Assembly: GCA_963169695.1 (NCBI GenBank)
Contig: CAUJDS010000062.1
Location: forward strand, 10,792-42,791
Source: Bdellovibrionota bacterium
Lineage (GTDB): Bacteria; Bdellovibrionota; UBA1018; CAUJDS01
Direction: 5' to 3'
Length of the DNA stretch: 32,000 nt
The notes under the pieces were generated by a model. It searched no databases and was not told where the DNA came from. It saw only the letters and a list, made by a program, of their open reading frames with translations. Positions 15,215 through 19,939 of the stretch are shown piece by piece. Each line of letters starts with the position of its first letter. Position 1 is the stretch's first letter. The translations under genes were made by a program, and so were the position numbers.

Positions 15215-15238
15215 AGGTTCTCATCGGTGCGGGGACCC

Positions 15239-15344
15239 AGGTACTAAAGGTACAAGGTACGGACTTACTTGTGAGACCTGATGCGTCATTCTGATTCGTC
15301 GAATTAAAATGACGCGCTGGCATGTTGAAACTAGCTTCGTACCT
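15239..15344. repeat. Repeat copy A: 3x AGGTAC, a 34-bp unit shared with 19829-19862, and a decayed right arm
   Basis: AGGTAC occurs at 15239, 15248 and 15255. gtacggacttacttgtgagacctgatgcgtcatt at 15257-15290 matches 19829-19862 at 32/34 positions. Weaker similarity (9/12) extends to 15302. The region 15321-15342 matches the right palindrome arm of copy B at only 11/22 positions, ending in cGTACCTA (15338-15345). Confidence 0.85.
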
Positions 15345-16349: not shown

Positions 16350-16634
16350 ATGTGGGTCGTGCTCGAGCACAAGTCCGTAGTTAAAGAGCTTAAGCGGTGC
16401 CCCAACCACATTGCGGAAGAGTATGAACTCTGGCGAACAACCGTGGAAAACTCGGGTCCCTACTCCGTAAGGAAAATTCCGGGATATCGAGACCATGCGC
16501 TTGAGGGAAAATGGAAGGGTTTTCGTTCGTCGTCCTTGGACCGAAAATGGCGAGTTATTTATCAAATCCATGATGATGAAATCATGGTGCAAATAGAGGA
16601 GGTAACAGCTCATGACTACCGGAAGAAAAACTAG
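16350..16634 (+). CDS. Type II toxin, RelE/StbE-family mRNA interferase (HigB-like gene order: toxin first)
   Basis: The 94-aa protein has KIPGYRDHALEGKWKGFRSSSLDRKWRVIYQIHDDEIMVQIEEVTAHDY. This matches the RelE/StbE pattern (G..K..RS.RL....R.IY.I......V..V..H.Y). It overlaps the downstream HTH gene by 23 bp. Confidence 0.8.
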   Translation: MWVVLEHKSVVKELKRCPNHIAEEYELWRTTVENSGPYSVRKIPGYRDHALEGKWKGFRSSSLDRKWRVIYQIHDDEIMVQIEEVTAHDYRKKN

Positions 16635-16902
16635 ATCGTTGCTTGGTAGCGGTCATTACGTGGTGGGCAAACGACGAGTGAGCCTTACAACGGGCGATAT
16701 CGTTCGTATGCTTCGAGAGAAAAATGAACTTACCCAGCTCCAATTGGCTCAAATCACTGCCCTAAAGCAGAGCACCATTTCCGCCATTGAAAAGAACAGA
16801 ATAAGCATCGGAATCGAGCGGGCGAAGGTGCTGGCAAAAGCTCTCCATGTCCATCCATCGACCCTCGTATTTCATGATTGGCAACAAGACGACGCTGCTT
16901 AG
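16612..16902 (+). CDS. XRE-family HTH antitoxin (HigA-like)
   Basis: The 96-aa protein has a Cro/C1-type HTH (LREKNELTQLQLAQITALKQSTISAIEKNRISIGIERAKVLAKAL). It appears translationally coupled to the upstream toxin. Confidence 0.8.
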   Translation: MTTGRKTRSLLGSGHYVVGKRRVSLTTGDIVRMLREKNELTQLQLAQITALKQSTISAIEKNRISIGIERAKVLAKALHVHPSTLVFHDWQQDDAA

Positions 16903-16934: not shown

Positions 16935-19796
16935 TCACGGTTTCTTCTTCAAAACCTTAGCCAAACACCTCCGGAAAAACCCGGGTCCTTCCGGTGGAAG
17001 GTAGCGTCTCTTAATAGGCTTGCCCCAATCGTCCAATTGAAAGGCAACCGCTCGCCTAAATTTCCAGGAGCGCAATAAGTCTCTGGTTTCGACCGGAAGA
17101 TCATTCTTCTGCTTCAGAACATCCGCAAGCTGCACAAGTTGGCTGGCTTCCATTCCCCACCGCTCTTTGTACCAACGGTTCTTAGTTTCGGACCATTCCC
17201 TGCGCGCTTCTAGCATTTTCTCCATTTTCGCTTTCAAAACACTGTGAAGGTTTGCCCAGACATCTTCAGGCAAGGTTGGGCGAGCGGTAACGAATTTCAT
17301 TGCGCCACTTTGAACGTCAGTACCGCGATTGTTCAATAAACTGTTGACGACTTTCCAAACGTTGACGGGAGGTTCTGGCATGTTTTTCTTGCTGCTTAAC
17401 TCCTCTAAAACCAACGCTTGAAAGCGGGCCTTACCTCCCACGACATGGACGCTGAAAACACCCCCTTCATCCGCTAGCTGCTGAAAGACCTGCCTCCAAT
17501 ATCCGGGATGGTGACTTGCTTGGGGAATATCCGCCAGTTGAACACGATCTCCCGTTGCCCCCAGAAAATCCCAATAGGCATCATCCCATCGAGCAACGTC
17601 CGATGCATTTGCGCCCTGGACCCGAGGATTGTCTCGAATGCCAATGTCGGGAAGAATATCGGCCAATTTTCCCAAGTTGTTTTGATTTCGGTAGAAAACC
17701 TGCTCAACCGCGATCCAGGTTGATGGCTTCCAGTTCTTTTTTTTCCTCAGCAGGTGCGCCAAAGCAAAAGATTGTACTCTCCTATCAGGATGCGCCAAGA
17801 GACTCTCCAGTTGTAATAGAGTTTCGTCGCCCCACTTGCCCAGGACACCCTTCACTCTTTGCAAGTAGACGGCGTGCTCGCGTTCACGACTTCTATACGT
17901 TTCCGCACCTTCATCCCAAAGTGACAAGCGATCGCCAGGCCCAAAGTCGAGTGCATGTTTCGTCCAAGCTTCCAAAGTAGCGGTAAGAATGAGTTGTTCG
18001 GGAAGGGTCTCCGCCTTTGCGACAAACTCCGGAAGATCCCGTATGAAACCTGCCGATGCGGGAAGGGCACGTTCAGTGACTTGTCGATAGCTCTTGAGAG
18101 TAGGAACTTCCTTTATCAAAGACTCTAAGGAGGAATCTCTTAAGGCTGCCTCCAATGCTTGGATCGCAAACTCGGCATGACTGGAATGATTTAAAGCCTC
18201 GGACAAGAAATTCATTCGCCTCGCCGAGGCACCTCCGCCAAAAATGGCACGAATCGTGGACGGTTTTCTCATGTAACTGCCGAGAAAAGCGTCCGTTACA
18301 TCCACGGTCTGAGTTTTTTCTAGGAGAACACGAAACCGCTCGATATCTTGCGGATCCGTTTCGGGATTGAGAAGGGAAGCCAATGCGCGCGCCACCGACG
18401 CGTGCTCTTCCTTCGACAGAGTTGGATCTTCCAATTGTCGTTCAAAGGTGAAAAACAACGTGTCTAACGTTAAAGGCAGAACTGCACGAATCTGAGCCCT
18501 ATCTTTAAGAACCAGACGACCGTCATAGTTCTTAGCGGCCGACGGCTCCACTTCCAGCGCGATCGCTACATCACCAAAGGATAGTTGATCCGCACCTTTC
18601 GCGCAGTAAAGGCCCGGCCCTAAAACGGCCGTTGAAGATTTACCTTGAATGAACATTGTTCCATTTGAAATCCAAAGTGCCCCATTCGCCATCGACTGAG
18701 CCGCGGCAAGGGAGGTTCGATGAAGAAACACCTCGGCTGCTGCTCCACTTGCAATGGCCTTACCCTCAGGAAGCGGATCAAAAATGCGGTACTTGGCAAC
18801 TCCCGCTTCTTTCGCCAACGTCGTCACTCCATACTCATCTAGGAGTCTGCGAGTGTGAAGAGAACCTCCTGAATAAAGCTGCGCCTTCTCCAGCGCCTCG
18901 ACAATTTTGCCGGAAGCGGTGGTGGCCTTTGCACCATAATACTGAAGTTCCTCATGCCCCGTTTTCAAAAAGGCCAAGGCTTCCTTCAAATGATTTTGCC
19001 GAATGTCTTGCAGAAGCGAGCGAATAGCCGACTGCGAAGTTGCAGACAAATGCATATCCGGATACTCCGAACCGTAGCGCAACCACCGCAATACTTGCTT
19101 GAGTTTGGCGAAAACCGCGTTCTGATTCTTAAATTCCGGATTAAGACGAAAATCCAGTTCTCTTTTCTGAAACTGCTTCACGCCCCACTCGGCGAGGTTC
19201 ATCGGCTTACCGTCCACCTGGGCTTGAAGCTCGGACAAAAACACAAATCCTTGAGGCCCAATAGGAATATTAGAAATCGCTTCAAAGTGCTCAAGCTGTG
19301 GACGAAACCTGGGATCTTTTAAAAAATCTGCCGCAATCTGGATGTCCAAATTTTTAAAGAAAATATTTCCCGGTAGCTCCTTTTGAATACCAGCGATGAC
19401 TTTTGAGTAATCTGGCTTGGACTTAACATTTGATTGGGCATCCTTCGCGATCAACATCAGATCCAAGTCACTTTGAATTCGATGCCAATCAAAGAGATGC
19501 AAGCGAGGTCGGCTCTCTACCCATTGTCGATACGCGTCGACCCCTCCCAATTCGTGCATCTTCTTGCGCATGAAGACCAGGATTTCCCGAGACGTCCCTC
19601 CATAGGTGACAAGGTCTGCGCCGTGTTGTTGAGCCAGAATCCGTGCTGCCCGAATTTCAAGCACAAGGTCTGTGGTCTTACCCGCGAGCTCTCCAAGCTC
19701 CTGGACATTCAGCGAATCAAAGTCGCGCCCAAACGTCCAAGGCGACGCCATCAGCGCTGTAACCAATCCGAGAATGAACACACCCCTACCCCTCAA
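16935..19796 (-). CDS. Large secreted protein of unknown function (about 953 aa)
   Basis: This is an uninterrupted 2.87-kb ORF. The SD AAGGAG (19804-19809) is 7 nt from TTG 19796, whereas the track's GTG 19802 is only 1 nt from the SD. The N-terminus MRGRGVFILGLVTALMASPWTFG is a signal peptide. I recognise no family; motif-level hints are listed in findings. Confidence 0.75.
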   Translation of the reverse strand: MRGRGVFILGLVTALMASPWTFGRDFDSLNVQELGELAGKTTDLVLEIRAARILAQQHGADLVTYGGTSREILVFMRKKMHELGGVDAYRQWVESRPRLHLFDWHRIQSDLDLMLIAKDAQSNVKSKPDYSKVIAGIQKELPGNIFFKNLDIQIAADFLKDPRFRPQLEHFEAISNIPIGPQGFVFLSELQAQVDGKPMNLAEWGVKQFQKRELDFRLNPEFKNQNAVFAKLKQVLRWLRYGSEYPDMHLSATSQSAIRSLLQDIRQNHLKEALAFLKTGHEELQYYGAKATTASGKIVEALEKAQLYSGGSLHTRRLLDEYGVTTLAKEAGVAKYRIFDPLPEGKAIASGAAAEVFLHRTSLAAAQSMANGALWISNGTMFIQGKSSTAVLGPGLYCAKGADQLSFGDVAIALEVEPSAAKNYDGRLVLKDRAQIRAVLPLTLDTLFFTFERQLEDPTLSKEEHASVARALASLLNPETDPQDIERFRVLLEKTQTVDVTDAFLGSYMRKPSTIRAIFGGGASARRMNFLSEALNHSSHAEFAIQALEAALRDSSLESLIKEVPTLKSYRQVTERALPASAGFIRDLPEFVAKAETLPEQLILTATLEAWTKHALDFGPGDRLSLWDEGAETYRSREREHAVYLQRVKGVLGKWGDETLLQLESLLAHPDRRVQSFALAHLLRKKKNWKPSTWIAVEQVFYRNQNNLGKLADILPDIGIRDNPRVQGANASDVARWDDAYWDFLGATGDRVQLADIPQASHHPGYWRQVFQQLADEGGVFSVHVVGGKARFQALVLEELSSKKNMPEPPVNVWKVVNSLLNNRGTDVQSGAMKFVTARPTLPEDVWANLHSVLKAKMEKMLEARREWSETKNRWYKERWGMEASQLVQLADVLKQKNDLPVETRDLLRSWKFRRAVAFQLDDWGKPIKRRYLPPEGPGFFRRCLAKVLKKKP

Positions 19797-19828
19797 GTAC
19801 ACACTCCTTCAGGTGTTTATCGGATACT

Positions 19829-19895
19829 GTACGGACTTACTTGTGGGACTTGATGCGTCATTTTGATGCGACGAGTCCCACAAGTAAGTCCGTAC
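19829..19895. repeat. Repeat copy B: 67-bp palindromic element (perfect 22-bp arms, 23-nt loop)
   Basis: The left arm gtacggacttacttgtgggact (19829-19850) is the exact reverse complement of agtcccacaagtaagtccgtac (19874-19895). The loop tgatgcgtcattttgatgcgacg contains tgatgcg twice. The left arm plus 12 loop nt form the direct repeat of 15257-15290. Confidence 0.9.
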
Positions 19896-19939
19896 CTAAA
19901 CGAGTACCTAAACGAACAAGTAAGTCCGTACCTAAACGA
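19892..19939 (+). repeat. Iteron-like 12-mers GTACCTAAACGA x3, within a 24-nt duplicated block
   Basis: gtacctaaacga occurs at 19892-19903, 19904-19915 and 19928-19939. The 24-mer acaagtaagtccgtacctaaacga occurs at 19880-19903 and 19916-19939. An 11/12 copy (gtacctaaacg) lies at 16919-16929, between the antitoxin stop and the stop of the 953-aa gene. Confidence 0.85.

Follow-up and report, generated by a model that had tools for sequence, protein, structure and literature searches.

A Bdellovibrionota protein with an export signal is predicted to combine a class II nucleotidyltransferase core with a PARP-type ADP-ribosyltransferase-like domain

Introduction

The gene described here lies on the minus strand of a 32,000-nucleotide stretch of DNA from a Bdellovibrionota bacterium (contig CAUJDS010000062.1 of assembly GCA_963169695.1, positions 10,792 to 42,791; hereafter the window) and encodes a large protein with an export signal and two enzyme-like modules. 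The closest described systems are, for the first module, the class II tRNA nucleotidyltransferases (NTases) and poly(A) polymerase I (PAP I; PF01743; Protein Data Bank (PDB) entries 3WFO and 3AQL) and, for the second, the PARP-type ADP-ribosyltransferases (ARTs; ARTD, PF00644). Enzymes with NTase and ART folds can poison cells via RNA or DNA ends; examples are the NTase toxins MenT/AbiEii, which act on tRNA, and, among ARTs that modify nucleic acids, DarT as well as PARP10/11/15 and TRPT1, which ADP-ribosylate RNA ends. Bdellovibrio-type bacteria kill or exploit other cells, and to our knowledge the mode of action has been worked out for only a few of the enzymes they export. Residues are numbered throughout from an alternative GTG start at position 19802, which gives a 955-residue version of the protein.

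Comparing the protein with class II NTases reveals a similar predicted head-and-neck fold, with the GG-x-x-R-[DE] loop, the DxD motif of strand β2, the third carboxylate of β3 and the RxxR[FY] neck helix in register. However, unlike these enzymes, the protein has no Pfam match, carries about 30 extra residues between GG and DxD and has no recognisable EDxxR motif. An ART-like domain and variable helices replace the tRNA-binding body and tail, and the protein bears an export signal, whereas the described enzymes are cytoplasmic.

The second module has in common with PARP-type ARTs an hhH-x-T strand, the helix that follows it, a GxGhYxA motif and a Tyr or Phe about 10 residues further on; its His and Tyr are separated by 38 residues. 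In contrast to PARPs, the protein scores below every Pfam threshold and its domain is a minimal one of about 90 residues, in which Arg429 takes the place of the catalytic Glu (in a manual register). The domain is also bacterial, fused downstream of an NTase and part of a protein with an export signal. PARPs that lack this Glu, such as PARP10 and PARP16, are active mono-ARTs.

On the level of overall architecture, the Legionella SidE family (deubiquitinase, phosphodiesterase, mono-ART and coiled coil) offers a functional analogy only: in these large exported proteins, too, an ART is coupled to another enzyme that handles nucleotides and to a helical C-terminal portion. SidE proteins carry an R-S-E ART and use type IV secretion, whereas in the protein described here the ART-like domain is of the H-Y kind and the only signal seen is that for Sec. 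Apart from their shared ART superfamily, the two are unrelated in sequence and fold. MenT/AbiEii and DarT belong to different families (DUF1814 and DarT folds) and are cytoplasmic, unfused toxin-antitoxin components, which are compared here by description and with no claim of homology.

An earlier note on this DNA, written by a model from the letters alone, had called the gene product a secreted orphan with NTase-like and ART-like motifs and PxxxW helical repeats. The open reading frame and all the motifs it named are found where it placed them (DLVTYGGTSRE at residues 63-73, SDLDLMLIA at 111-119, NLDIQIA at 151-157, VFLHRTS at 358-364, LGPGLYCAKG at 394-403 and ALEVEP at 415-420). The gene and its two modules are as follows.

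16935..19796, minus strand: whole gene, 953 amino acids from TTG 19796, stop codon included (open reading frame list and translation)
18768..19721, minus strand: module 1, predicted class II (CCA-adding / poly(A) polymerase-like) NTase head and neck, residues 28-345 (AlphaFold2, Foldseek, hhalign, conservation)
18468..18740, minus strand: module 2, PARP-type (H-Y clade) ART-like domain, residues 355-445 (profile comparisons; predicted local distance difference test, pLDDT, 73-89)

A predicted nucleotidyltransferase head and neck

Searched alone, the protein had no match in Pfam (E<=10), NCBIfam or the PDB sequences. Structure prediction indicates that residues 28-345 fold as the head and neck of a class II tRNA NTase or poly(A) polymerase. 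The AlphaFold2 model of residues 27-520, built from 16 sequences, has a pLDDT of 88.7 and a predicted template modelling score of 0.88. In this model, strand β1 (DLVTY) is followed by the GGTS loop, two helices, strand β2 (SDLDLMLIA) and strand β3 (FFKNLDIQ), and the motif positions match those of a Pol-beta-type NTase. The module contains the G68-G69-T70-S71 loop, D112-x-D114 on β2, D153 on β3, the pair E174/N178 and a neck helix with the sequence LRWLRY.

Superimposing the model on known structures with Foldseek, which the earlier note had proposed for the region of residues 40-200, placed class II NTase folds on top. The best PDB matches were an A-adding enzyme (3wfo_A; E 1.6e-2, probability 0.98) and E. 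coli PAP I (3aql_A; probability 0.98), with alignments spanning 313-341 columns, and the NTases FAM46C, CdnG, NF90 and TUT4 followed at lower ranks. Among the predicted viral structures of BFVD, the best match was a phage tRNA NTase (E 9.6e-4, probability 1.0), followed by PolyA_pol-head proteins.

Profile comparisons point to the same relatives. The protein belongs to a rare family (family A) with sister families B, C and D, and these were aligned with hhalign to the CCA enzymes of 22 related genomes. Family A alone gave an E-value of 0.045, in the neck. Family B alone reached 5.5e-4, with GG, DxD, the third carboxylate, RRD and the RxxRF helix in register, and the pooled N-terminal module of four sister families reached 1.4e-5 (probability 80%) over 201 columns, in an alignment that pairs up GG, DxD and the neck helix RxxRF. 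In these alignments YGGTSRE and SDLD correspond to the GGxVRD and KDxD motifs of CCA enzymes. The family B equivalent of D153 is a Glu, aligned to the Glu of the hEVxTFR motif of CCA enzymes. No match to PolyA_pol (PF01743) was obtained for the protein (E<=10) or for 28 family members (E<=0.1).

Across 28 homologues, Y67, G68, T70, S71, E73, H107, E174, N178, R239, W240 and R242 are conserved. D112 is kept in 21 of 26 homologues and the D114 position is occupied by Asp in 22 and Glu in four, while D153, which lies on the strand 149-156, is Asp in 20 and Glu in four of 27 members. A small divergent subgroup (P0021, P0023, P0029, P0031 and P0037) has lost the first Asp of DxD. Thus the earlier suggestion of an NTase core is upheld by a confidently predicted fold, by the alignment with CCA enzymes and by the conserved GG(T/S), DxD and third Asp.

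The same note had remarked on an unusually long distance between GG and DxD, and this turns out to be a hallmark of the superfamily: the spacing is about 39-42 residues throughout, including about 39 residues in the sister families, compared with about a dozen in the aligned CCA enzymes. The extra 30 or so residues form two helices, a helical hairpin inserted superfamily-wide. Further along, the conserved E174/S177/N178 (HFEAISN) could match the D..N of motif B (RRDxTIN, for ribose recognition), and the vvRD of family B aligns to RRD. No motif D (EDxxR, for base templating) is recognisable in the module, where Q236 stands at the place of the templating Arg by manual register. After the neck the chain runs on into the ART-like domain and the variable helical region, where class II enzymes have their tRNA-binding body and tail.

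A PARP-type ADP-ribosyltransferase-like domain

The landmarks of module 2 are H361 in VFLHRTS, Y399 in GPGLYCA and F409, which is a Tyr in most relatives. The protein itself has no Pfam match to PARP (PF00644; E<=10), and we assign the domain to the ARTs because a chain of homology leads from family A to families B, C and D, and from there to Pfam PARP, to the PARPs of the PDB and to bacterial PARPs. Sister-family proteins score 17.3-27.2 bits to Pfam PARP (cut-off 26.7) in the middle of the protein, in a segment homologous to VFLHRTS...GPGLYCA, and secondary Pfam matches in the same segment are ART-PolyVal, Exotoxin A and HYD1-ART. A Pfam PARP scan of 401 genomes of the phylum found matches in similarly large proteins, and the weak tail of a search of representative proteins (see below) holds proteins of 800-1,400 amino acids that match only the ART-like segment.

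In the PDB, the domain profile had PARP10 as its first match (E 0.027), and 25 of the 32 listed matches were PARPs or exotoxin A-type toxins with the register kept, including PARP10/2/3/4/15 and exotoxin A. For reference we took two bona fide PARPs of bacteria in the phylum, whose Pfam E-values are 1.8e-30 and 1.3e-12. Against these, hhalign gave an E-value of 1.4e-5 (probability 80%) for the superfamily profile and of 0.011 for family A alone, in a register that aligns the His, the Tyr of GxGhY and the second Tyr. The predicted strand-helix-strand order fits an ART, and the sole ART fold match in the structure search was PARP16 at rank 38 (E 1.8, probability 0.10).

An alignment of 16 sequences from the four families shows the His (H361) to be invariant and H-x-T near-invariant. 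Within the family, H361 is kept in 22 and Y399 in 21 of 24 members, and Q369 and G374 are also conserved. Of the H-Y-E triad put forward in the earlier note, H361 and Y399 therefore stand, being conserved and aligned with the NAD-binding His and Tyr of PARP10 and of bacterial PARPs. E417 and E419 do not: they lie on β4, the wrong strand, are replaced by Thr and Ser respectively in most members, and were rejected as catalytic residues because they are unconserved. The alternative R-S-E reading also fails, since only 15 of 24 members carry R362 (Gly in the HGT variants) and SST 389-391, E417 and E419 are unconserved. A cholera-toxin-like R-S-E ART (ARTC) was rejected on the same grounds, the Arg, S-T-S and ExE positions being unconserved.

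Low-stringency extension of the hhalign comparison failed to place the third ART residue, and its register is therefore manual. Aligning RLVLKDRAQIR by hand with NEMIVFDLNRIR of a true PARP puts R429 at the position of the catalytic Glu (the start of β5 in PARPs), where relatives carry Tyr, Trp, Ile or Phe, as do PARP10 and PARP16. Because R429, hydrophobic or aromatic in relatives, occupies the Glu place in this manual alignment, the triad of the domain reads H-Y-x rather than H-Y-E.

A separate bacterial PARP was seen in genome G318, of the same order (L034:1408-3312, minus strand). This protein has RWD, ARTD15_N and PARP catalytic domains and a Deltex C-terminal domain, a eukaryote-like PARP16/DTX-type architecture that is unusual in a bacterium.

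A rare family within an undescribed superfamily

The protein is not the orphan it had been taken for, but a member of a rare family within a wider superfamily. A word-index search yielded seven homologues of 965-1,252 amino acids, alignable over the N-terminal half only, and later word-index searches added only six more proteins. When 1.84 billion representative proteins were searched exhaustively with a profile, there were 65 matches at E<1e-3, with 31 clusters at E<1e-30, and these matches include giant fused members of 2,917 and 4,249 amino acids. Sequence identity to the homologues is 39% over residues 28-445 and falls to 16% over residues 521-955. The named sources are "Bdellovibrionales bacterium", "Oligoflexia bacterium" or plain "bacterium", all of them metagenome-assembled genomes.

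Sister families B, C and D have the two-module core in common with family A. Comparing the family A profile with theirs by hhalign gave probabilities of 99.5% (E 5e-23) for B, 95.8% (E 7e-9) for C and 99.5% (E 4e-23) for D. The wider superfamily consists of exported proteins of 800-4,200 amino acids, seen here only in Bdellovibrionota-type assemblies. The family profile matched the PDB sequences at noise level only (NurA, E 0.005), and a Pfam scan of distant members and giant forms revealed no additional domains. No Pfam, NCBIfam or PDB family covers the superfamily and the literature searched holds no description of it; the superfamily appears to be unpublished and joins known folds in a new combination.

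The distribution of family A is patchy. Of 401 genomes sampled from the phylum, about 11 carry it, and these are spread across several families; a search of the 40 genomes closest to that of the window found no member. A metagenome scan for the family returned one small fragment. The window's genome holds a single copy, and elsewhere three family A copies carry 12, 1 and 1 stop codons.

One homologue of 345 amino acids (P0022; L047:5995-7546) had the appearance of a protein with the NTase module only. At its locus, frameshifts break a full-length gene and the ART-like domain continues in two other frames. A stand-alone NTase form was therefore rejected for P0022, the one short homologue whose locus was inspected (P0019 and P0020 being the others), and P0022 would be either a pseudogene or an assembly error.

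Reading frame and export signal

19728..19796, minus strand: Sec-type signal peptide, residues 3-25, MRGRGVFILGLVTALMASPWTFG (read from the sequence)

The open reading frame can begin at TTG 19796 or, as an alternative, at GTG 19802 (16935..19802, minus strand, 955 amino acids in the translation). An AGGAG motif at 19808-19804 lies 7 nucleotides before the TTG and 1 nucleotide from the GTG. Because of this spacing, TTG 19796 is the likelier start and the 953-residue form the likelier protein.

The N-terminus has a basic n-region and a hydrophobic core and is without a lipobox Cys, features that identify a Sec-type signal peptide. Comparable signal peptides start almost all homologues and sister-family proteins. 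The signal peptide recognised in the earlier note is in this way confirmed by its own features and by its retention across the family.

Helical region and lone-cysteine C-terminus

16983..18467, minus strand: all-helical linker and hypervariable C-terminal region, residues 446-940 (DSSP on both models)
16938..16982, minus strand: C-terminal tag with lone cysteine C946 (codon 16965-16967), ending ...FFRRCLAKVLKKKP

In the full-length model (pLDDT 61) the tail is helical and of low confidence. Foldseek searches with this model returned weak alpha-solenoid matches only (E about 2e-3, template modelling scores of 0.11-0.16). HEAT_2 matches in Pfam were obtained for two of 28 family members (E 0.003) and for sister family C (3e-7), and no HEAT match was found in Pfam for the protein itself. 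Of the PxxxW helical repeats suggested previously, the helical region and the positions hold true: four PxxxW motifs, at 693, 766, 812 and 845, each stand at the N-terminus of a predicted helix. As a repeat, the motif is statistically marginal, its count in the tail exceeding that of shuffled sequences at p of about 0.03.

The last 10 residues of the protein are C946-LAKVLKKKP. A Cys within the last 20 residues is found in 31 of 44 superfamily proteins (at least 600 amino acids), compared with 0.98 expected from their own Cys content, and it usually lies 7-11 residues from the end. The pattern extends to the window's genome, in which 14 of 71 predicted exported proteins (at least 400 amino acids, 1-2 Cys) have a Cys at -6 to -18, where 2.8 are expected. 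In this tag the lone Cys stands 6-18 residues before the end of the protein, and a few hydrophobic and basic residues come after it. It matched none of the NCBIfam sorting-signal models, and may be an undescribed C-terminal sorting or processing signal. Other large, Cys-poor signal-peptide proteins with the tag are encoded on contigs C11:121437-126437, C31:931-3351, C44:21176-24109 and C56:9225-12836.

Proposed function and alternative explanations

We propose that the protein is a Sec-exported modular enzyme that uses nucleoside triphosphates (NTPs) and NAD+ and acts inside a prey or host cell, a reading to which we assign a probability of about 0.55. Its basis is the evidence given above for an export signal, for the folds and homologies of the domains, for conserved residues and for the distribution of the family, and from this we infer catalysis, substrates, the delivery route and the roles of tail and tag. 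As judged from the alignments, the nucleotide- and metal-binding residues of both cores are under selection. Module 1, with its metal-binding carboxylates intact, is predicted to bind NTP-Mg2+ and to transfer a nucleoside monophosphate to a hydroxyl, for which the class II NTase fold has a precedent acceptor in the RNA 3' end. Module 2, an NAD+-binding ART fold with His and Tyr and no catalytic Glu, is predicted to act as a mono-ART or, at the least, to bind NAD+. Target recognition would fall to the helical, hypervariable tail, and the lone-Cys tag would direct sorting or processing.

Outside a cytoplasm there is essentially no NTP or NAD+ to draw on. Because an exported enzyme with a need for both would find them scarce, the protein would most plausibly work in the cytoplasm of another cell, as an effector or toxin. 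The population pattern is effector-like, with patchy occurrence, stop-bearing copies, giant fused forms, a hypervariable tail and no conserved neighbours. RNA ends are a reasonable first guess for the modified target, by analogy, because the head resembles that of CCA enzymes and Glu-less PARPs are generally known to act on RNA ends. A bolder version, which we consider improbable, is a "double-warhead" arsenal in which RNA ends or another shared acceptor would be modified twice, by nucleotidylylation and by ADP-ribosylation, with the tail picking the target and the lone-Cys tag routing an exported class of proteins.

Several points weigh against the proposal of an exported NTP- and NAD+-using enzyme. 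Significance in the profile comparisons needs the pooled sister families, family A alone giving 0.045 with CCA enzymes and 0.011 with PARPs, and the Foldseek E-values of the NTase are modest in both the PDB (1.6e-2) and BFVD (9.6e-4). The ART fold was matched solely by PARP16, at rank 38 with a probability of 0.10, and the catalytic Glu is missing from the protein, with Arg429 placed in its position manually. The templating EDxxR and the tRNA-binding body and tail are absent, which makes an RNA substrate a guess. Apart from Sec, neither a secretion system nor a route of delivery was identified, the lifestyle of the organism is read solely from the names of the homologues' source assemblies, and catalytic activity is a prediction from sequence and model.

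In a rival reading the protein has a single catalytic module, the other one (the Glu-less ART-like or the NTase-like domain) being a pseudo-enzyme that senses NAD+ or NTP and gates its partner. R429 in place of the catalytic Glu, at a position that varies in relatives, is in line with this idea, as is the loss of the first Asp of DxD from P0021, P0023, P0029, P0031 and P0037, which shows that the protein can survive the decay of a single module. However, H361, Y399 and the DxD/D triad are each kept in more than 80% of members, and it is established for the active mono-ARTs PARP10 and PARP16 that loss of the Glu need not mean inactivity. We regard a pseudo-enzyme as possible, if clearly less probable than two active modules in an exported effector. 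It is unlikely that the protein instead serves its producer in the envelope or periplasm, for example by altering molecules on the producer's surface or by acting as a helical scaffold. The Sec signal is the only one evident, no dedicated secretion-system gene is linked, and the C-terminal Cys tag, common to several exported Cys-poor proteins, could be an envelope anchor. Yet the periplasm is normally without NTP and NAD+, a hypervariable tail is typical of conflict proteins, and the patchy distribution (none in the 40 closest genomes searched), together with copies bearing 1-12 stops, speaks against a housekeeping role.

Least probable, and in our view very unlikely, is a module for defence or addiction that works inside the cell, like the NTase/ART systems of abortive infection, and shares an islet with a HigB/helix-turn-helix (HTH) pair. 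The gene does adjoin a YafQ/HigB-like toxin and an HTH_3 antitoxin, genes for an MNT-type NTase and a DUF4143 AAA ATPase lie within 4-6 kb, and NTase and ART folds are both established as frequent in defence systems. Against such a module, a signal peptide is present throughout the superfamily, homologues have no conserved neighbours, a partner immunity or sensor gene is absent, and the flanking repeats are generic repetitive extragenic palindrome (REP) elements.

What distinguishes the proposed exported enzyme is that two folds usually found at work on RNA ends and NAD+ inside cells stand here behind an export signal and are followed by a fast-evolving tail. If active, the protein would belong to a new class of toxins or effectors that act between cells, and it might also provide a new tool enzyme for modifying RNA or protein ends. 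The lone-Cys tag could point to a route of sorting or processing that is as yet uncharacterised.

Genomic neighbourhood and repeats

19829..19939, strand not assigned: palindrome of REP type with tandem copies, immediately upstream of the gene and outside the protein, with a partner copy at 15238-15302 (repeat search)

The neighbours of the gene include an SLT transglycosylase, an uncharacterised exported protein, the toxin-antitoxin genes and a tetratricopeptide repeat protein. The loci of homologues elsewhere have unrelated neighbours, none of them conserved. Directly 3' of the gene lies a toxin-first type II toxin-antitoxin pair, at 16350-16631 and 16612-16899 (both on the plus strand, with a 20-nucleotide overlap), which encodes a toxin resembling YafQ/ParE/HigB (E 1.6e-7) followed by an HTH_3 antitoxin (E 1.7e-11).

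The earlier note had described the locus as a repeat-bounded islet. The palindromic element that flanks the four genes of this islet (at 15238-15302 and 19810-19939), GTACGGACTTACTTGTGGGAC, has 24-26 copies genome-wide, compared with none for a reversed control, and is a REP-like palindrome rather than an element-specific end. The idea of a mobile islet was rejected for this reason. REP-like copies often occur as hairpin pairs, in intergenic positions beside accessory genes. A gene for a Y1 transposase like the REP-associated tyrosine transposases (RAYTs) lies among eight REP-like copies on another contig (C57:17595-18197); its full-length match to Y1_Tnp (E 3.8e-4) falls just under the cut-off. 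A further large gene of the window's genome, at C8:1764-5468 (L070:165-3866), encodes a 1,234-residue signal-peptide protein that has no Pfam match, and REP-like hairpin pairs stand on either side of it.

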